A stretch of DNA of 63,716 nt, counting the filler, from Reticulomyxa filosa (Eukaryota > Protista > Foraminifera): the NCBI GenBank assembly GCA_000512085.1. It is 19 parts of 19 records of this genome, joined end to end, with 100 filler letters (N's around TTAATTAATTAA, not from the genome) between each part and the next. Parts side by side here need not be neighbours in the genome. Positions count along the whole stretch, not along the records: positions 48,940 to 58,210 come from ASPP01006341.1; 18 more parts are not named here. The stretch is one strand, 5' to 3'. The position numbers and the translations under genes are program-made. Below, piece after piece: positions 48,029 to 59,681 of the stretch; the stretch's first letter is position 1; each line of letters opens with the position of its first letter. Below the pieces are notes generated by a model. That model had not been told where the DNA came from. It searched no databases and saw nothing but the letters and a program-made list of their open reading frames with translations.

Positions 48029-48958
48029 CGCATTCATGCGCTTGGAAGGGAAAACGTCACTGTCCGTGCAAGTGAACAGTATAGCACTACGGACTTAATG
48101 CACTAATTTTTTTAAACTGGAAAAAAAAACAAAAAAACAACTAAGAAAAACTAAACCACATTTTGGTATGCGTATTCAGCGGCTTTTTTTCGCCATGTTG
48201 TTTGTGTGATTTTTTGCGTATGGAGCAGTGCGGAGGGGAAACGTTTTTTAAAAAATTGATTATTTGCGGCCTTTGAGCTCGCTGTGGCTTTTTTGAAAGC
48301 CGATTCGACTTGTGATGCGAAGACTTCATCAAAAACAAGTTTGCTTGAAAAAATTCGTAAACTTTAAACTTTTAGCCTGTGCAAAAGCTTGGCCTAACGA
48401 GAAAAAAATGTTGCGACATTTCTACGTCAGAAATGTGCATAATGCACAAAAATTTCTTCTAAATCATCAAAAAATGTTTCGGTCACGTTTTTTAAGTTGA
48501 TGCACACGTCAAAAATGAACACATTTTTTTAAAGACGTATTCATCAATTCTTGTTCCTTGCATTAAAAAAAGATTTTTGTCAATTTTCCAAAAATTGTTT
48601 TGGCTAGCTTTATACATACAACGTCTTTCCTTTTAATAACGTCCTCCCCAAAAAAGTGTCACCACGAGGCACATCTTCAACCAAAGAGCTTTTCAAAAAA
48701 ACTGTATATTTTGACGTGTGCACCATAGAAACAGCACAAAATTTGTGTTTTTCATTATAAAAACAGTCCAAAAATGTTTTTGTCTTCGAAAAAGGTTTTT
48801 TTGCGATGTTTTGCGAAGATATAAAGTGAATAGTCAAATNNNNNNNNNNNNNNNNNNNNNNNNNNNNNNNNNNNNNNNNNNNNTTAATTAATTAANNNNN
48901 NNNNNNNNNNNNNNNNNNNNNNNNNNNNNNNNNNNNNNNAATATTGTTTATTGTATTA

Positions 48959-49609
48959 TCAGTTATGTAAGTATGGAATTTGGTGCAATTGAACATATGT
49001 AAGTGCAAGAAAAAGTGCGCTCACCTCTACACTGTTTTCCATCGAGTCAGTCATAAGGCAACCAAAGCGATCAAAGCGAAGGCGATAATTTGGCAACAAA
49101 GTTAGTTTGGAAATGACGTTACAACCAAATCGTTGAAGAAAAACCGCGGAAATCAATAAAAAGACATGTGTGAAAGGCAACAATAAATCATAATTCCAGA
49201 CATAAATTAGGGCGTATTGAGAGTAGCCAAGCAAACCCAAACTTACATATTGCAATGATCTCATAAATTTTTTGCTATTGTTTGAGTGCTTTTTCAACAT
49301 TGATAAGCCATTGGTATCCACCAATACCATTGGCTCTTTCACTTTGAAGAAGGACAACGTTATTTTTTCTGGAAGTGGGGTCTCTTCCTCAACTTTCTCT
49401 GCCCTTGATCCAGTTATTTTGGATAGAAGACCACTTCGTTTAGACTTCTCAAACGTGTCCTTTTCCATTGATGCAATTGTTTGTTTTTTGTAGTAGGTTG
49501 GTGGCCCCGGCGCAGGTTCTTTCTTCAAACTTGAGGCTGTTCGTGCCACATGAAATGCCGAAAGCCTAGTACTTGGTCTATCTACAACATGAATGCATTT
49601 GCGATACAT
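48959..49609 (-). CDS. Putative mitochondrial two-TM protein (TMEM70/186/223-like)
   Basis: R/S-rich N-terminus resembling a targeting peptide, two hydrophobic helices, then NVISKLTLLP..RLRFDRFG. Confidence 0.45.
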   Translation of the reverse strand: MYRKCIHVVDRPSTRLSAFHVARTASSLKKEPAPGPPTYYKKQTIASMEKDTFEKSKRSGLLSKITGSRAEKVEEETPLPEKITLSFFKVKEPMVLVDTNGLSMLKKHSNNSKKFMRSLQYVSLGLLGYSQYALIYVWNYDLLLPFTHVFLLISAVFLQRFGCNVISKLTLLPNYRLRFDRFGCLMTDSMENSVEVSALFLALTYVQLHQIPYLHN

Positions 49610-49967
49610 GATCTATATTGGAATTATATTGTCACACTGAGTTTTTGATTCTAGGGGAAGATCAAAAAGTTTTAAGGCGTACACAAGTCGCAATATTACC
49701 ATCTCTTTATGGCAATCTTGAGAATACAGAGTCATATTGAGTTGTTGAACACGTTACTACGTTAATGTTTTTGTTCGGCACCACATTTAGTTGACTGTAG
49801 AAAAAGTGACAGCTCTACTAGTTTAACATTTCAAAGAAAAATGTCGAATTGGGTAACACAACAGATATGTTCAAGTACACAGTACAAGGAGTTGACTTGC
49901 CTTTTTTTAAACAAAAATTCACTTTAGTTTTAAGTACAGGATCTTGTCCATCTAATTTTCGCTTAAA

Positions 49968-50516
49968 ATGACTTTTCCGCTTAATTTAACTTTTGTTTAT
50001 GGTGTAATATTAGGTATAGTTTTTATGGACTTGCGAGTGGATCATCACTTCATTGGGGTCGAGTCTGCACGGTCGCTAAACGACTTGTCTCGTGGTTACG
50101 TGTATTATGCCGATATAAGCGCAAACGAAAGCATTTATTTTCAATTGGTCCTCCCATGTCTGATTGTGGTCAGTGGAGTATTCTTGATGAAGCTGTGGAT
50201 TGAAAAACGAACTCAAATCGAATTTTTTTTGGTATTCTTTAATGTTTTCATGGTTTATGTGTTCATTGGCTCTGTCATCCCTCAAATAACTAAACTAAAA
50301 AGTATGACATTAAAGAGCATAGCAGATAACACAAGTCAACAAGATGTAATGTTTAAAATTCTCAAAGACATTGCGTTATCTCATGTCCAAGTGTGCTTGG
50401 CTGCATTTTTTAGTTTACTAATTGTCCTTAAATCGTACTTAAATGACTCTTCCACCGAACAGATTGAACAGGAGGAAATAGAAGAAAAGAAAGAAAATGA
50501 CAAAAAAACAAAATAA
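49968..50516 (+). CDS. Four-TM ER membrane protein, Shr3-like
   Basis: Intact 182-aa ORF with four hydrophobic segments and a charged tail ending in the KKTK dilysine ER-retrieval motif. Confidence 0.6.
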   Translation: MTFPLNLTFVYGVILGIVFMDLRVDHHFIGVESARSLNDLSRGYVYYADISANESIYFQLVLPCLIVVSGVFLMKLWIEKRTQIEFFLVFFNVFMVYVFIGSVIPQITKLKSMTLKSIADNTSQQDVMFKILKDIALSHVQVCLAAFFSLLIVLKSYLNDSSTEQIEQEEIEEKKENDKKTK

Positions 50517-50867
50517 AATTAGAAGGATAACGATTTTGATCAAAATTTGATTATCTAAAATGTTATCTTTTACATATTTTTTAAAAAAAGTATGGATAAC
50601 TTTAACATAAAAACAATCCCTTTCAAAAAAATTTCTTAGTTAACAATGGATATTCTCAATAAAAATTTCTTTAAATTTGTTCGTCAAATGATCTGTAAAT
50701 TAATGCCTTGTTGCGAATTACCTTAGGAGGCGGAACGTTTGAAAAAAGCCTCCGAATTGGGATAGTGCTATTACAAACTGAAAACTCAAGGTCTACACGC
50801 TTTTGTGTTTTCCTTTTTTTTTAAGTAAAGATCCTTTCAAGGTGACATCTCTAATCATCAAAAAAAA

Positions 50868-52060
50868 ATGTCCGGTGTTGAACCAGCAGATGAATTAGCC
50901 CAGTGTGGTGAGATATTGAAAGATCTGCAAAGTAAACCTGAAGCAGAACCTTTTCTAGAACCAGTAGATTGGAGGGCTCTCAAGTTACCTGATTACCCCC
51001 AAATAATTAAAAATCCAATGGACTTAGGAACGATTGCGAGCAAATTAGGCCACAGTGAATACAAAGATTCCTATGCTTTTGCTGAGGACGTAAGGTTGGT
51101 ATGGAGAAATGCAAAGCGTTACAATACTCCTGGGAGTGGAATTTACGTGGTTGCCGAAGTTAATTTGCACATTCACTCAATCCGCTATCTTTTCAATTTA
51201 TGAATATTCTAACATCAAAAATGACTTAAACATATTTTGATAATAAAACATTTAAATAGAATTTAGCCAAAATCTTTGAACGAAAGTTTGCAAGAATAAA
51301 AAAGGTTGATACTGGACGAAGGTAGTCTTTTTTTTTTTAATCTTCCCTTTTTAATAGTGATTTTTTCCACAATTTTCGGTGCTCATATGCGGTTTTTCGT
51401 GCCACATTTTGTTATCCATTTTTTTGTTTTCTCCCAGGAAAGAAAATAGCCTTTTATTTTGCATATGTGTGTAATGACAACAATAAATCACACTGCCCAA
51501 GGAACAAAAGAGAAACAAAAAAACTTTCCTCAAACGCTTGGACACATACAAAAAAAAAAATGGAAATAAATAGAAAACTTCCAGACAAAGTGAAAGGCAA
51601 AGAAAGCACACATGCAGACCGTGTGAAATTCACCGAATTGATTAAAAAAATAAACAGTGATCAGTTGGGTAAAGTAGTGGAAATAATAGACAAAAAATGC
51701 CCTGCGGCATTGAATTCTTTGGAAAATGAAGAAGATATTGAAATTGAAGTGTATCACATTGATGCTGACACTCTCCATCAATTGATCGACTATTGCACAA
51801 AGTGTGTTCATAAACTTGATAGAAATGCAACAACCCCCATAGTTGATCATACTCGTGGACAAAGTACAACAGAGCAAAATATCAATCCTGTTGATCCTGC
51901 TAACAATGAGACCAATATCACTAACACAGAGGGGGTCGAGACTACTGACACTGGCACTGCCAATTTCGAAAAAAATGACAATGACTTGCTTCCCAACACT
52001 GGACAACCTCAAAGTAATTGTGATGACAAAACCATTGCCAATCCATCACAACCAAACTAA
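50868..52060 (+). CDS. Bromodomain + extra-terminal (ET/NET) domain protein, BET/GTE family
   Basis: AEPFLEPVDWRALKLPDYPQIIKNPMDLGTI..FAEDVRLVWRNAKRYN, and an ET domain DQLGKVVEII...EEDIEIEVYHIDADTLHQL. Exons 50868-51158, 51260-51321 and ~51574-52060. Confidence 0.93.
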
Positions 52061-52520
52061 ATTGTCTAGGAAAAAACTCGTAGATTACCTTGTTAGTTTT
52101 CCCTTCTTCGTCTTGTGCCATCACAAACTTCGAAAGGGGATTGAAAATACTGTTTTCCTATTTCACACTATTGTTATTTAAATCGTTTTGAGACAATCAC
52201 AATGACTTGACTTTGTTGTGAATCTTAATTTGATATCTTGATTTGATCCAATAGAGAGTTGGAGTTTGCTTGAGACACAAAAGAATTTTTCAAATTACAA
52301 TCAATTTTAAGTTCAATCATTTTAATTTTTCATTCTTCTCGTGAAAAGTTTGTGAGGAGAAAAATAAGATATTTTATTCTTGTATTTTGCAAAGTTTTTA
52401 TTCACCACTCCACGTAGGTTTGACCAAAGTGAAGCTGTGACTTGTTATACTTAACATAAAAAAAAAAAATGTCTTACTTAAAAAAACAAAAAACAATGTG
52501 AGAGTGACCCCAATGTTTTT

Positions 52521-54461
52521 TTATTCGTTATCTTTCCATTCATCATCTACTCCTTGGTTGTCAGCACTGTCGTCGTCTTGCCAATTCATGATTGTTGACA
52601 TGTGTCTTAACGTATGTATGGCAAGGCCAGTACTATTGTTTTCTTTTGTTACTTCCCCATATTCGATTTTATCAGAGCTTCTATTTTCTTCAAGTTTTTT
52701 CTCTACAGCATCAGTGGCCAAAGTGGGCACCTTAATTTCGCTTTCAGTGATGCCTCGCATTAATTTGTTTCTTTGTGCCAGTTTTGCTTTTAAATGATCC
52801 ATCAATCCAACTTTTTCAGGCTCTTTTGCTTTTGGTTTCTCTTGACTTCGTGCACTTTTATTAACTGTTTTCAGTTTTTTTGGATTTCGAATTTCATCCA
52901 ACATGGCCGATCTTCCTACTTTATTTGTTTATTTGTAATGTTTATTTGCAATGTTTATTTGTATTCAAAAAAACGAGAAAATCACTCAATAACAACAATA
53001 CCTTCTTTTTTCTTGGTAAGTGGCGCAGCAGGTGCTGGTTTTGGTGCAACCTCTTCTGGAGATGCTTCTTTTGGTGGTGCTACAGGAGCGGATGTTGGCT
53101 GTTGTTGTTGTGGTTGTGATTGGGACTGTACTTGTGGTTGCTGTTGCGGCGGTTGTTGCTGTGGGGGTGGAGGAGGTGGAGTCAAGAGCTTTGGAGGAGC
53201 GGGAGGTGGGCCTGCAAAGTCATCTGCAAACGCGACATCAGGCAAAGGCCCTAAATCAGGCAAGGCTCCAAATTGAACAGCAGACGGAGCAATTTTTCGC
53301 TGACTGGAGGTACCCATCTGAAAATTGACATCCAAAGCCACTCCAGATAACCCAGGAACAACTCGACCGATTTGAAATCTGTCATTGGATTGTTATGTGT
53401 TATATTCGGATTTATTTAGCAAAAATACGAGAGAAGAAGGAGAGAGTGCCAGACAAAAAAAGCTATTTTGAACTAACTCGGGGGCTTTGTCCATGTGAGG
53501 TTCGTATCGAAGATCAAAAGCTTTGTGATCCATAAGCGATATTTTTTTGCCAATGCTCGGGGGTTGTGGTTGTACTGGTACATTTGTGTCTTCTTTTCGT
53601 TTTTCTTTTGCTTCTTCGCCTTCTAATATATCACGCAATTGATATCTCACATATGGGTTCTGTACGTGCACATAATGTTTCAACTTTACCTCTTTATCGC
53701 AATACAATCGTTTTCAAAAAGGAAAAAAACCCAAACAAAAATTAATACCTCATCGTTGTTGAACAACAGACAATCGGATACGGAAGTGAGCCACTGAGGT
53801 AATTGTCCTAATCCTTCCTAGATTTTTTTTGTAATGAACACGTATAATAAAGGTTCAAACCAATAATAAGTCTTCCTTTTTTTTAAATGTGTAATATAAC
53901 AACATATTTGAATATCATTGGCTTAACTGGTTTATTTTCGCTCTTCTTTGTTGTTCTTTGTGTAATGGAATGAAACAAGTGCAATGTATCTTTGTATTGT
54001 GGTTGCTCCAACTAATATTATAAATTCACATTATGTAACTCTTTTGGCAAAAATAAAAAAATTTTGTTTGAAAGGATATGTTAAAACTTAACTCTTTGCT
54101 TGACTGACAGTTTATATTTTGGCCGTTCGGGCCCGGTTGGATTTTCAATCATTGTTACCAAAGGCTCGTCTTTTGGTCTTTCTTTTTGTGGATAAGTCTC
54201 TTGCGAAAACACTGTTGTTGCCTTGCTTGGATACTTTGCGATCAATTCCGATTTTTTTTGGCACGTTTCCACACGTTTGGTGATCGATTTAATTTTATTT
54301 CTCTCCAAATTACATTGGTTTGAAATAACCGTTAACGTGTCATCCATTACTTTGCACAAAAAGTTCATGTTGTCAATCATCTGATTCAGCGTCTCCGCTG
54401 GAGATAAATTTTGAAGCGCTAATGGCAACGAATATTGCCTTGTTTTCAACGTTGAGGTCAT
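52521..54461 (-). CDS. WASH1: WASH complex subunit 1 (WASH1)
   Basis: WAHD domain (YSLPL..LSPAETLNQM...KATTVFSQETYP; GLGQLP..SVSDCLLFN), poly-proline, WH2 (RSAMLDEIRNPKKLKTV), C helix (LMDHLKAKLAQR) and acidic DDEW tail. Confidence 0.92.
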
Positions 54462-54654
54462 TTTGGAAAGTTATGCTGATAAATAAAGATGACTGAAAAA
54501 TGGTATCCTTTTTTTGTTTTGCTTGAAAGTTTGGCGTTTCCGTTCCAAAAAAAACATGCCATGCCAACGCGAAGTAATGAGGTTCTTAAAACAACACAAA
54601 ACTAGTAAACGCAAATTAAAATGATATTCTTCCTCTTTTTTTTAAATGATATGA

Positions 54655-57600
54655 TTACCATGCTGTGGCTTGAACTAGCCAACCATGCTCATTTTTGCGC
54701 ATAATACCTTTTCGTACTTCGTCGTACGCAAGAATTAACAATGCAAACGGCAAACCCGCCAACCACCAAACAAAGCGAACAGGACGCGTTGAAAAAATGG
54801 TATTGCAAAAAGGGACATAACTCAGCATTCCTGCCATGATGGTTTCACATAATATTGAATAATTCATAAATCCATTTCTTTTTTTATATTCACGTTTGTT
54901 GAATGTAAATAATTATTTTAATTTTTAAGTATAAATTTTGTATAGTTCCCTTTTTTAGATAACATATACATATAATATAAATATAAGTAAATGTTTTTCT
55001 TAAACATACTCCATTCCTTGTTCGAATAAAGAACGTGTTCTGCTCTTGCAAATCAGTAAGTTGGCCCATTGTTGAGTGACAATGGAAATGAAGAAAGCAG
55101 TTTGTGCCTGTATCAGCACTTCGTTGCGATCCATGGCTTGCATTGGGAACAAGGAAAACTTGGAACCTTTTTTTGTGCGTGTTTTTTCGGCATTTCCATC
55201 ACAGTAAGCAAATTCTTTTCCGGAAAAGTCTTTTTTCCAGCAGGGACGACTGGGATAGAGATTGGAGGTAAAGAGGTGTTTTTGCAAATCTTCAAAAAAC
55301 CCGCCATTCCAAGCAGTTTGAAAGACAGTCCAATTACCAGTTTGAATGGCTGATTGAATTGCGGCGCCTTGATTCAAGTTAGTTTGGCTTTGTAAGAATG
55401 AGCGACCTCTTTTCGCAAAACCATGAGAATCAGTTAACCAACTTTTGAAATCGGACTCACCGTTAAAAGATACGTCAGAGGACGAGGCGTAATCTTGATG
55501 GAGTTGTGTTTGACCAAAGTCGGGCAAAAATGCGCAGTAGTAGTTAAACGATTTCATGAAACTGGGTTCAAAGCAATAAAGCCAGTACGAGTTGGTTCGC
55601 AATGAGGAAGGCGCATATTCGAATACGAGATCGGTGTCAAGCCATAGCAAAAACTCGGGACGGAGTCCAAAGGCGGCCAGAACCACAAAGTATGTATACA
55701 TGCCTCCCAACGATTCCAAGATACCCATCTGGCCGTAGGCAAATCCCATGAGTCGCCACTGGACGAGTTTATCTTTTTGTGCATTTCTCGGTTGACGACG
55801 CATAATGTCAGCCTCTTTGGTCTCAAAGGCCATGGAAATGGCAGGAGCAATATCAGTGCCTAAATCGACCATAAGCATCATGACTGTTGTTAAAGGTAAA
55901 GGAATGCCAATCATTTGTGTCAATAAGTAGGGGACCAATTCAGGGATGTTGGAGGCCAACACGTAGGCAATGGATTTCTTCAGATTATCAAAGATGATAC
56001 GTCCCTGTTCAATGCCATTGACAATTGACGCAAAGTTATCATCTAGCAAAATCATGTCGGCTGCGTCTTTGGCCACCTCCGTGCCTGTTTTGCCCATGGC
56101 GATACCAATGTCTGCCTTTTTCAAGGCCGGTGAGTCATTCACACCATCTCCCGTCACAGCGACAATGCCACCACGATCTTGGCAGGCAGAGACGATTAAT
56201 AGCTTTTGCTGCGGCGATGTTCTGGCAAACACGATATTATTTTTGATTAGTGTGCGATTCCAAAAATCGGCAATGGACTGTGCGTCTTTGTCCAGCTCTT
56301 CTTGCAACTCCCAGCCGGGCACGACCACGGCGTCATACTCGCTGTCTTTCACCATGGTCTTATTTCCGCCGTACTTTTCTTTGGCCACGTCGTCCAATGT
56401 TCGGCTTCCTGTTCCCAAAATGCCTACTTTTTCCGCAATGGCTTTGGCCGTCACGGGATGGTCTCCTGTCACCATGATCACTTTGATACCTGCTGACTGG
56501 CACTTGGCCACGGCCTCGGGCACGCCGGGACGTGGTGGGTCGATCATGGCCATGAGGCCGACAAACACAAGTCCTTGTTCTTGTTCATTTCGATGGAACG
56601 GGAAGTTGAGATCGTCTTCTTTCGTTCCAGAAAACTTGTAAGGGCCTTGTCGAATGTGGAATACGCTTCCTTGTTGGCATTGCAATTCTGCAAAGGACAA
56701 TTCGTCATCCAATACTTGCATGCGCTTTCCATACATAACACGTTGCATAGCAACAGGCACATGGATCGCGTCTGCCGCACATTGCTTGAGATGCTTCACT
56801 TGCAACTGCTCCCATGTATAAGGCTGATTCGTTGTTGCATTCGTCCCGCTCACTGCAATTATGTGTTTCTTGTCATTCCATTCGATTACCACACTCTCAT
56901 TGGTCACGTTCTGATCCACTTCCTCGTCGAACAGTTCCGGAACAGGTTCCTCGATATTCAAATTATATTCATCACTTTCCAGTACCATTTCCGCCATTGC
57001 CAATACTCGTTGTCCACGGCTTCCCAGCGACAGCACCATATCCAACACCGACTGTTGCACTTTTTCCGTCATTTTTTGTTTTTCTCCGTTCAGCCAATAG
57101 CGATCGCAAAATGTGAGTATACGTTCGGGCGCACCTTTCATTTGCACCAACGCAACTTTTCGAGCGCGTTGCCTTGCCAACATATCTGATTGGGGAATCT
57201 TTTGCTCTTCGTCGACTTTGGATTCTACATCACCGTCAATGACAAAGTTCATAGGTAACTCGTGAACGGAGATCTGCCATTTGTTTGCACTGTTGAAAGG
57301 GATTTCGTGCAGCTTGAAATGCGTTTTGCGATAATGTGCAATGGTGGTGGCATACGTAGCATTGATATGTCCAAATGCAAATTTCACCATTGCCGCTTCG
57401 GTCGCATTTGCAGTCTTATCGATTTCATCTCCGATAAATTCCGCATTGTTGCACACCGCAGCACAGCGAACCAATCGCAAAAAATCAGGTCTTCGCACTT
57501 TTGTCTTGTGGATGGTTTCGTCGTAAAAATCGCCTTCAATGGCCTGCAATGGAGACGCAGTATCGCACTCACGTTCTTTCATATCAATAACTACATGCAT

Positions 57601-58128
57601 ACAAGTCATCACGTTCGTCGTCAATGTCCCGGTTTTGTCTGAACATATCACCGACGTTGATCCCAATGTTTCCACAGATTCCAAATTTTTCACTTGCACA
57701 TTTTTTTCCAACATTCGATTGGCCGTCACTGTCAGAGATACTGTCACTTCTGCCAACAATCCCTCGGGCACATTGGCAACAATGATTCCAATCAACCATA
57801 CCACGTTGACGAGCCAGTTCGGGTTGGTTGCCATTCCCAAAATGAAGAAAAAGATTCCCAATGCGAATGCGATCAGTGATATTTTGAAACAAAAGTCTTT
57901 GATTTCCACAGCGATGGGTGTCGGCTGTGAACCCGTGGCAGCAGCAGCCTGGGCTGTCTGTCCCATAAATGTTTCATCTCCAATGCTAATCACGAGACCC
58001 ATTCCCTTTCCACGGACCAACAGCGTACCAAAGAATGCCAAGTTTGCCGCTTCTGCCGGAACTTTGTTCGATTTGCGCCAATCGCGTTTTTGTGGTTCTG
58101 TCTCTCCAGTCAATGACGAATTGTCCAC
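54655..58128 (-). CDS. P-type ATPase subfamily IIC (Na+/K+- or H+/K+-ATPase alpha-like), 5' truncated
   Basis: VDNSSLTGE, VANVPEGLL, ICSDKTGTLT, KGAPE, DPPR, MVTGDHP, TGDGVNDSPALKKAD, DNLKKSIAY..SNIPE, DLGTD, ICKSR. Last exon ~54655-54875 with YDEVRK. Confidence 0.97.
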
Positions 58129-58310
58129 CTTTCAATCCGCAATTTTTAGATCCAAACAAACACAATTTTTTTTTTTTTTTAAATGTGGGTCACTGTTGCA
58201 AAAAAAAAAANNNNNNNNNNNNNNNNNNNNNNNNNNNNNNNNNNNNNNNNNNNNTTAATTAATTAANNNNNNNNNNNNNNNNNNNNNNNNNNNNNNNNNN
58301 NNNNNNNNNN

Positions 58311-59681
58311 AAGAAGGCAGAGATGCACTATCGCAAAGCGATGGAGCTGCGACCCGATGACGTCACCTCCTACAATGACTGCGCGATCATGCTCGTTCGG
58401 CTACGTCGGTCGATGGAAGCCAAGGAATTGTATGAAAAAGTCTTGGAACTAAAGCAAGATCACGCCATTGCCCATTTCAATTTGGCTAATTTGTTGCGAA
58501 AAGATTTAAAAGATTACAAATCTGCCGAAACGTATGTTATTATAACATATGCATATATGTATATATGTATATATGTATATTTTTTTTTTTTTTTTAAAAT
58601 TGTGATAAATGATTTGCATATAGCGTGATGTGGGTTTGGTTTAATATGTACATTTTTTTTTTTTTTTTGGGGGGGGGGGGGGGGAGGGGGGGAACACAAA
58701 TTGCTCAAAAATTCTTTGTTTTTCTCGTGGTTATATCATGACAGCCATTTTTTGAAATCGATCAAACAAAAACCCAAGTTCACGGCAGCGTTGAATAATT
58801 ATGCCACCATGCTGCATCACCAATTGAAACGCTACAAAGATGCGGAATACTATTATCTGCAAGCCATTTGCGTCGATCCGCAATATTCCAGGGCCCATTT
58901 CAACTACGCCAATTTGTGTCGCGAGCATTTAGTCAAGTTTGAAACCGCTCAAGAACACTATCTCATCGCACTCGAAACTGATGAAAACAACCCCAACTTT
59001 CACAACAACTACGGCTTGCTTTTGCAATACTCACTTAAAAACTATCGCGAGGCTAAAACACAGTATGAGGAAGGTAATTTATTGCAATGATATTTTTTGA
59101 ACTAATTTTTGATTTGTTGTAATTTTTTTTTTTTTTTTTTTTTAAATTAAAAAAATAAAAAATAAAAAAAAGCGCTTCGATTGGATCCTGCACACGCGTT
59201 GGGCCATTGCAATTATGCCACAATATTAATGCAAATGGTCGACAAAAAATACAATCCTAACATGGACGACTTGTCCGACCCTGACGAAGACTCACAGCCC
59301 AGAAAAATATCAGCGAAAAAACGAGAATTGTATTTGCAAAAATCGGAAAAGCATTTCAAACAATCGATTCAACTTAATTCACAGTTGGTTATGGCATATA
59401 ACAACTATGGTTGTTTGCTACGACGTTTGGAGAGGTACGACGATGCAATCAAAATGTTTGAGAAGGCACTGACAATTGATCCAAAATTTGTAATGGCTAA
59501 GAGAAACCTTAGGAAAACGCATGAATTAAATGGTACCATACCACCTAAGTCTACTTCTACTGCAAATGAAAATGTTTCTCCTCCTGCCAATCCAAACTCA
59601 AATTCTACTTCAAAGATAACACGAAACGTAAATGAGTCTGAAAGAAATGTAGAAAAAAACGAAAATTGTTCTGTGATGTGA
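58311..59681 (+). CDS. Tetratricopeptide-repeat protein (partial), ending in CSVM
   Basis: Repeated A..N.A/G..L...A...Y.KAL...P motifs over three exons (58323-58532, ~58745-59072, ~59173-59681). Confidence 0.92.

Follow-up and report, generated by a model that had tools for sequence, protein, structure and literature searches.

A ubiquitin-like domain encoded within the nucleotide-binding domain of P2C ATPases from Reticulomyxa filosa and other sampled Retaria

A P2C ATPase gene with an enlarged N-domain loop

The window analysed here is a stretch of 63,716 nucleotides, filler included, from the foraminifer Reticulomyxa filosa (assembly GCA_000512085.1), in which positions 48,940 to 58,210 derive from record ASPP01006341.1. 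This part carries, on the minus strand, a gene for a P2C (Na/K-type) ATPase, in which a ubiquitin-related domain is encoded in frame within the nucleotide-binding domain (N-domain). The open reading frame (ORF; 58131-55000) specifies 1043 amino acids (aa; designated P0001), of which aa 2-1041 are 100% identical to NCBI protein ETO28972.1, while the 5' part of the gene is missing, with an assembly gap at 58211. The assignment to the Na+/K+-type ATPases in the initial annotation, made from the sequence alone, was borne out, as the best PDB matches of P0001 were Na,K-ATPase alpha chains (expectation value (E) 4e-195), followed by H,K-ATPases and then by SERCA. The P-type catalytic motifs TGE, DKTGT and GDGVND are present, and the closest similarity was shown to be with P2C chains. 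Animal Na+,K+-ATPase alpha chains (PDB 3WGU, 9KCG and 8ZYJ) represent the best solved match, with DKTGT, PEGL, SNIPE and DLGTD all intact in P0001.

The distance between the G.RV and DPPR motifs was found to be 158 aa in P0001, compared with 52 aa in the pump of Cercozoa sp. M6MM (MES1907262.1) and 44-45 aa in animal pumps, so that the net insert relative to the cercozoan amounts to 106 aa. The cercozoan pump, which is the nearest named protein without the insert, has the loop flanks in common with P0001, and in the loop alignment its sequence resumes on either side of the insert, which takes the place of a three-residue turn between Y389 and Y498. Relative to animal alpha chains, approximately 108 extra residues of the N-domain loop follow the residue aligned with F558 of pig alpha1, N-terminal to the final strand of the N-domain (LVFVGL) and to the DPPR hinge. 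The limits of the insert (Table 1) lie within a few bases of the in-frame insert of ~105 aa initially placed at 56645-56960, and the insert and flank motifs quoted at that time are all present in P0001, i.e. GQRVLAMAE (aa 373-381; 57015-56989), VVIEW (aa 414-418), QRVMYG (aa 463-468), GSVFHI (aa 488-493) and DPPR (aa 531-534). The insert occupies a surface loop inside the N-domain and not, as initially placed, the junction between the N- and P-domains.

The G+C content of the insert (0.461) is exon-like and resembles that of the flanking exon (0.454 and 0.504), with values of 0.08-0.29 for four intron stretches nearby, and codons 491-505 of P0001, where an acceptor would be placed to remove the insert, contain no YAG. 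Furthermore, the same insert was observed in frame in EukProt proteins of Nonionella stella, Rosalina sp., Elphidium margaritaceum and Astrolonche serrata, as well as in dozens of environmental proteins. Two of these four named EukProt proteins bear MMETSP transcriptome names, and the other two are presumably also of transcriptome origin. This transcript-level support comes from proteins of other species. A stop-free intron or an artefact of assembly, as alternative explanations of the insert, have a negligible probability and were ruled out by the base composition, the lack of an acceptor, the NCBI protein and the in-frame relatives. By these sequence criteria, the insert is exonic and translated.

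Homology of the insert domain to ubiquitin

The ubiquitin beta-grasp pattern that had been read from the insert was reproduced by structure prediction, structural searches and profile comparison. An AlphaFold model of aa 387-503, based on a 44-row alignment, reached a predicted local distance difference test (pLDDT) score of 91.8 and a predicted template modelling (TM) score of 0.85, with the predicted element order strand, strand, helix, strand, strand and with a pLDDT of 90-91 for the linker over model residues 11-30, while a single-sequence model (pLDDT 51) was set aside. Foldseek returned matches with a probability of 1.00 and a TM score to target of up to 0.84, the rows shown all being ubiquitin, SUMO, ISG15, NEDD8 or ubiquitin-like (UBL) chains. 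An exhaustive VIA search of 48,161 chains yielded the UBL of OASL at Z 10.5 (root mean square deviation of 1.8 A over 75 residues), tied with ubiquitin, and the 50 rows listed (Z >= 8) all bear titles that denote ubiquitin, SUMO or UBL chains, or fusions of these. The insert domain is accordingly modelled as a beta-grasp fold.

An 11-row profile, consisting mostly of the insert, retrieved viral ubiquitin (E 2.7e-7), the Dsk2 UBL (E 1.1e-6), NEDD8 (E 1.8e-6) and ubiquitin (E ~2e-5). Since this profile finds the ubiquitin family by sequence, the relationship is one of sequence homology and not merely of a common fold, and the insert domain is, on this basis, homologous to ubiquitin. Comparison with Pfam, a check proposed in the initial annotation, showed that the ubiquitin family PF00240 matches the P0001 insert at E 1.4e-4 with 22 bits, i.e. 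below the curated cut-off of 25.4 bits. Among 26 proteins scanned, 15 matched PF00240 at E <= 0.05 and a single one exceeded the cut-off (28.3 bits), while none of nine radiolarian-side proteins was matched. The score below the cut-off is probably the reason that no precomputed ubiquitin domain occurred among the matches listed, and that this architecture has been overlooked.

In the ESM Atlas, the first match of the P0001 domain was the SF3A1 UBL (0.90), and for the insert of the acantharian Astrolonche ubiquitin-family rows were obtained only at 0.83-0.84, which serves as a lead only. Homology of the Astrolonche insert is instead based on its position, its flanks and a radiolarian-side profile, which finds the foraminiferan domain at E 1.6e-15 and gave no match in proteins lacking the insert.

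To identify a donor, a phmmer search with the loop was performed against 1.84 billion representatives, which yielded 28 matches, comprising 25 pump proteins or fragments and three unrelated proteins (P0050, P0059 and P0063) that were discarded as repeat-driven. A profile search among longer proteins, with 7993 candidates scored, returned 11 matches, all of which are pumps, representing weak evidence of absence. With an identity of only 13-24% to its best structural matches, no donor family can be named. Similar to type II UBLs (OASL, BAG6, Dsk2, Rad23, SF3A1 and parkin), with which it shares its fold (Z 8.7-10.5) and sequence homology, the domain has no di-glycine and is not cleavable; unlike these UBLs, it sits inside the loop of another domain with both ends tethered, lacks the Ile44 patch and possesses an extra hairpin. 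A reading of this hairpin as a calcium-binding DxDxDG motif was dropped, as the pattern is not conserved.

Distribution and phylogeny of insert-bearing pumps

A search with aa 360-540 of P0001 recovered 26 proteins, of which 25 bear the insert (one being the NCBI record of P0001 itself and two being partial) and one, the cercozoan pump, does not. When the insert was excluded from the query (aa 1-389), the best 120 of 4330 matches comprised 57 proteins with the full insert, 57 without it and six that are incomplete. An ostracod protein (P0110), for which loop length was misleading, is a gene model without N-domain and was counted among the non-carriers.

In trees computed without the insert columns, all carriers formed one clade every time, with a Shimodaira-Hasegawa (SH) support of 0.993 (87 rows), an SH-like approximate likelihood ratio test support of 99 (57 rows) and support of 100/99 (47 rows). 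Partial, degenerate or redundant rows were left out of these trees (four from the first and, of the 87, 30 more from the second and 40 from the third). In 200 of 200 bootstrap trees (47 rows), presence of the insert mapped as a single change. Two sides were resolved within the carrier clade, one foraminiferan (100/99) and one that includes the acantharian Astrolonche (99/94), and the closest non-carriers are an unnamed protein, the cercozoan pump and an amphipod-labelled Hirondellea protein. The latter (P0100; UniRef A0A6A7G5Y4), which carries the label Hirondellea gigas, clusters with the pump of the cercozoan (98/89) and not with animals, and is probably a protist sequence within an amphipod data set.

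Among the pumps sampled, the insert is confined to this one clade, in which no clean loss was found among complete sequences, and it is kept in divergent paralogues. One such paralogue, P0055 (Nonionella stella P308251), is a degenerate pump in which DTAGI replaces DKTGT and the later ion sites are unrecognisable, with the insert kept. The survey of rhizarian P2C ATPases that had been suggested at the outset hence shows an insert common to the sampled foraminifera and an acantharian, with the cercozoan lacking it. The simplest reading of these sequence data is that the insert was likely gained once, in an ancestor of Retaria (foraminifera and the acantharian).

Ion-binding sites of insert-bearing pumps

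With the residue roles for ion sites I and II taken from the accessible text of PMC5026471, all six ligands of these sites (E327, S775, N776, E779, D804 and D808) were found in P0001. At site III, Y771 and Q923 are kept, T774 is replaced by Ala and D926 by Asn; in addition, Val occupies the T772 position and the protein ends in ATAW, unlike the ETYY of animal alpha chains, so that P0001 departs from the residue set of a canonical 3Na+:2K+ pump. Among the 51 carriers in which the D926 column is filled, 48 possess Asp and three Asn, and the C-terminus of most other carriers reads TYW or TFW. When 11 ion-site residues were checked, 43 of 46 complete carriers possessed every one of them, with Ser for T774 as the sole difference from animals.

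Asn at the D926 position and Val or Ile at T772 were observed in both Reticulomyxa pumps in which M8 is covered, i.e. P0001 and its paralogue ETO20202.1 (P0066), which end in ATAW and ANAW, respectively. According to the accessible text of PMC5026471, D926 is a site III ligand, and its replacement by Asn weakens Na+ binding and selectivity. P0001 and ETO20202.1 are probably, as far as their residues indicate, P2C members that do not act as 3Na+:2K+ pumps, and the D926N-type pumps of Reticulomyxa may operate with a reduced stoichiometry or on other ions. Reticulomyxa is a freshwater species.

On the foraminiferan side, P0024 has Lys in place of S775 and Asn in place of D926, a pattern resembling that of H+/K+-ATPases. 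This protein is a candidate for a pump that moves protons, which may be of interest for calcification. On the radiolarian side, P0109 possesses Lys at the N776 position, representing a built-in cation in the ion site. The extracellular M7-M8 segment, at which animal pumps bind their beta subunit, measures ~180-480 aa in complete carriers compared with 50 aa in animals, and is long in the cercozoan pump too. No Pfam family was shown to match the M7-M8 loop of P0001 itself.

The features of the pump gene are compiled in Table 1, together with three neighbouring genes for which no link to the pump is implied.

Table 1. Features of the insert-bearing P2C ATPase gene and neighbouring genes (positions refer to the window)
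Feature	Position	Strand	Basis
Main exon of P2C ATPase alpha subunit (aa 2-1041 of P0001)	55010..58128	-	ORF; identity to ETO28972.1; PDB matches
DKTGT phosphorylation motif, intact	57625..57639	-	Sequence
Whole insert, aa 390-497, in N-domain surface loop	56641..56964	-	Loop length; boundaries from loop alignment
Acidic linker, aa 390-411; Glu395-Pro396 conserved; predicted packing on the ubiquitin-like domain	56899..56964	-	Charge, pLDDT, covariation
Ubiquitin-like (beta-grasp) domain, aa 412-495, with extra ~9-residue hairpin after strand 2	56647..56898	-	AlphaFold, Foldseek, VIA, profile
Arg464-Val465-Met466, containing the equivalents of ubiquitin Arg42 (retained) and Ile44 (replaced)	56734..56742	-	Alignment to viral ubiquitin 6KNA
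Exit motif Gly-Pro-Tyr, aa 496-498, at the return to the ancestral loop; not followed by di-glycine	56638..56646	-	Alignment
M5 ion-site segment; equivalents of Y771, S775, N776 and E779 kept, those of T772 and T774 being Val and Ala	55933..55968	-	Alignment with animal pumps
Long extracellular M7-M8 loop; segment of 196 aa versus 50 aa in animals	55132..55629	-	Alignment
Asn1024, aligned with the Na+ site III aspartate D926	55060..55062	-	Alignment
AT-rich GT-AG intron close to 3' end, before last exon	54878..55009	-	G+C content 0.14; sequence and junction in NCBI protein
Last exon, M9-M10 and C-terminus ending ATAW	54655..54877	-	Pfam Cation_ATPase_C E 3e-10; matches end of ETO28972.1
Neighbouring WASH1-like gene (WAHD and WH2)	52521..54470	-	
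Neighbouring gene for bromodomain protein	50829..52060	+	
Neighbouring gene for TPR protein	58310..59681	+	

Surface of the domain and covariation with its linker

Ubiquitin numbering was assigned to the domain by alignment to viral ubiquitin 6KNA, and residues were counted over 64 carriers. Arg was found at the Arg42 position in 57 of these, while Ile was retained at the Ile44 position in a single carrier, the other residues including Gly (24), Phe (8), Tyr (7), Met (6) and Asn (6). At the His68 position, 23 carriers possess His and 17 Tyr, whereas Val70 was matched in ten carriers and Gly47 in two. Neither the Gly75 nor the Gly76 column contains Gly in any carrier, so that the di-glycine of type I modifiers is absent, and the Leu8 loop is cut down to a tight turn, leaving the domain without the Leu8-Ile44-Val70 patch of proteasome-shuttle UBLs (Rad23, Dsk2 and BAG6). 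The domain is therefore not a modifier that could be cleaved off, and it also differs from the UBLs that typically bind the proteasome.

These counts bear on the proteasome- or chaperone-docking module suggested in the initial annotation, i.e. on the possibility that the canonical ubiquitin surface serves for docking on proteasome receptors, UBA/UIM proteins or chaperones and that turnover of the pump is controlled in this way. Some features are consistent with such docking, as NEDD8 and the UBLs of BAG6 and Dsk2 are among the closest sequences of solved structure, the P0001 domain has kept Arg42 and His68 with Met at the Ile44 position, and 40 of the 64 carriers possess His or Tyr at position 68. 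The scarcity of Ile44 (frequently replaced by Gly), Val70 (Arg in P0001) and Gly47, the tight turn in place of the Leu8 loop and the covariation of the patch face with the linker, described below, nevertheless weaken this proposal and make canonical docking very unlikely. A regulatory role of the domain, likewise suggested in the initial annotation, is still plausible.

The conserved parts of the insert are the fold core and two junctions, i.e. Glu395-Pro396 at the entry and Gly496-Pro497-Tyr498 at the exit, the latter three residues being present in 63, 56 and 60 of the 64 carriers, respectively. The linker was shown to be acidic, with a mean net charge of -6.7 in foraminiferan-side and -3.0 in radiolarian-side carriers. 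An acidic residue at position 395 was observed in 55 of 56 carriers with Arg464 compared with three of seven without it (Fisher p 3e-4), and column 395 alone stands out of 27 linker-region columns for its association with Arg464. In a mutual-information scan (effective n of 45), the pairs 401-466, 407-494, 404-492 and 395-464 were among the top 30 of 6903 pairs. Four of the eight linker-domain pairs in this top 30 fall on the positions of R42, I44, H68 and V70, compared with 0.4 for random sets of four positions, with the proviso that Arg42 joined the patch set only after its conservation had been seen. The covariation suggests that the linker likely lies across the former ubiquitin receptor face in the modelled structure.

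Discussion

The explanation that we favour, with a probability of about one half, is that the insert domain represents a rigid, self-masked lobe acting in cis on the stability or cycling of the pump. According to this explanation, the ubiquitin-related domain would be a permanent and non-cleavable part of the N-domain loop, in frame with the pump. The acidic linker would wrap over the old Arg42/Ile44/His68/Val70 face, the Glu395-Arg464 pair and the Gly-Pro-Tyr exit would clamp the lobe at a fixed angle atop the N-domain, and the lobe, being clamped and covered, would be unreadable to ubiquitin receptors. By analogy only, the lobe might raise the stability or turnover rate of the pump as SUMO1 on K585 is reported to do for SERCA2a, without a conjugation step. 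It would likely be a permanent stabilising or tuning tag on the pump and not a destruction signal.

This analogy draws on a review (PMC12938818, accessible text) according to which SUMO at K480 and K585 raises the activity and stability of SERCA2a. In both cases, a ubiquitin-fold moiety is positioned on the N-domain of a P2 pump, with K585 located in the same loop as the insert, SERCA2 residue 585 being aligned to aa 516 of P0001 (E 0.4-0.6, with the chain index taken as the residue number). The SUMO modification is reversible and post-translational, whereas the domain of carrier pumps is genetically fixed and located at a different point of the loop; moreover, ubiquitin and NEDD8 match the insert profile more closely than SUMO does.

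Several observations weigh against the favoured explanation. The SUMO parallel is positional only, as the aligned residue lies 18 residues past the domain exit and the alignment itself has an E of 0.4-0.6. As reported in the accessible text of PMC3394785, SERCA2a still works with yellow fluorescent protein (YFP) inserted before residue 576, the YFP having matured poorly, and because the equivalent loop tolerates YFP, retention of the insert need not mean regulation. The 395-464 pair ranks 26th in the covariation scan and reflects approximately three independent co-losses, while the scan as a whole corresponds to 45 effective sequences with kinship uncorrected. Within subclades, covariation is weak, with two patch pairs in the top 30 (P ~0.05) and, on the foraminiferan side, a P of 0.19 in the top 70. 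The carrier subclades are 19% identical to each other in the insert domain, as against 40% in the N-domain and 68% in the P-domain, and such fast drift fits a constraint on the fold only. Rhizarian outgroups are thin, comprising one named cercozoan, one unnamed and one amphipod-labelled sequence, and only one radiolarian is named, most carriers being environmental and Endomyxa and polycystines not having been identified among the rows. As most carriers are unnamed and the named radiolarian and cercozoan number one each, the taxonomic boundary of the insert is provisional.

The fast divergence between subclades and the retention of transport when the equivalent SERCA loop takes up YFP (PMC3394785, accessible text) would also be consistent with a frozen accident, in which a ubiquitin-like exon entered a loop tolerant of insertions, adapted jointly with its linker and was kept solely because a misfolded or half-deleted domain would harm the pump. 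Ubiquitin fusions of Bigelowiella natans and Guillardia theta have been described (Sibbald et al. 2019, PMC6332867), and the accessible text reports for Bigelowiella, also a rhizarian, many ubiquitin-fusion genes with N-terminal, C-terminal and internal fusions; unlike these, the domain of the carrier pumps has diverged strongly and sits within a membrane pump. The lack of any clean loss among complete in-clade sequences, though the ancestral short loop works in sister pumps, and the nearly invariant junction motifs render a frozen accident rather improbable.

Integral UBL domains are commonly protein-interaction modules, and the domain might alternatively be a docking site, off the Ile44 face, for a Retaria-specific partner such as a trafficking adaptor, a cytoskeletal linker, a kinase or another pump copy, by which the pump would be localised in reticulopodia or axopodia. 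Besides this common role of integral UBLs, retention of the domain in the catalytically broken Nonionella paralogue, the presence of the extra hairpin in both subclades and the exposed location of the insertion site on top of the N-domain (PMC3394785, accessible text) argue for a partner. Conversely, beyond the fold core and junctions, Arg464 and an acidic residue at position 482 are the only surface positions conserved across both subclades, and Arg464 covaries with Glu395 of the same protein, so that partner docking is considered unlikely, if deserving of attention.

Descriptions of a UBL insert in a P-type ATPase were not found in the accessible full-text literature, subscription journals and InterPro lying outside the search. 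In the text accessible for each source, the review of Palmgren 2023 (PMC10654040) mentions ubiquitin only for yeast Pca1p and does not mention foraminifera, the term 'ATPase' is absent from the main text of PMC6332867 and from PMC6133090, and 'ubiquitin' and 'insertion' are absent from PMC3355532. The ubiquitin-derived, translated insert conserved across sampled Retaria is apparently undescribed. A broader claim, that these proteins are the first ion pumps with a hard-wired, self-masked and cis-regulating ubiquitin-like modifier, placed in the loop at which SUMO is attached to SERCA in animals and representing a defining innovation of Retaria that extends across canonical, ion-site-altered and catalytically dead paralogues, is tentative and somewhat doubtful.

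As an insertion of a whole domain, the insert is a candidate marker for Retaria (foraminifera plus radiolarians), which may assist in placing polycystines, Taxopodida and Endomyxa and in spotting contaminants. It also provides a natural, stoichiometric model for the effect of a ubiquitin-fold moiety on the N-domain of a P2 pump, a question that is likewise raised by SUMOylation of SERCA2a, where partial modification makes its study hard. Finally, these findings give access to the ion pumps of marine organisms that are major calcifiers and builders of skeletons, among them paralogues whose ion sites are altered.

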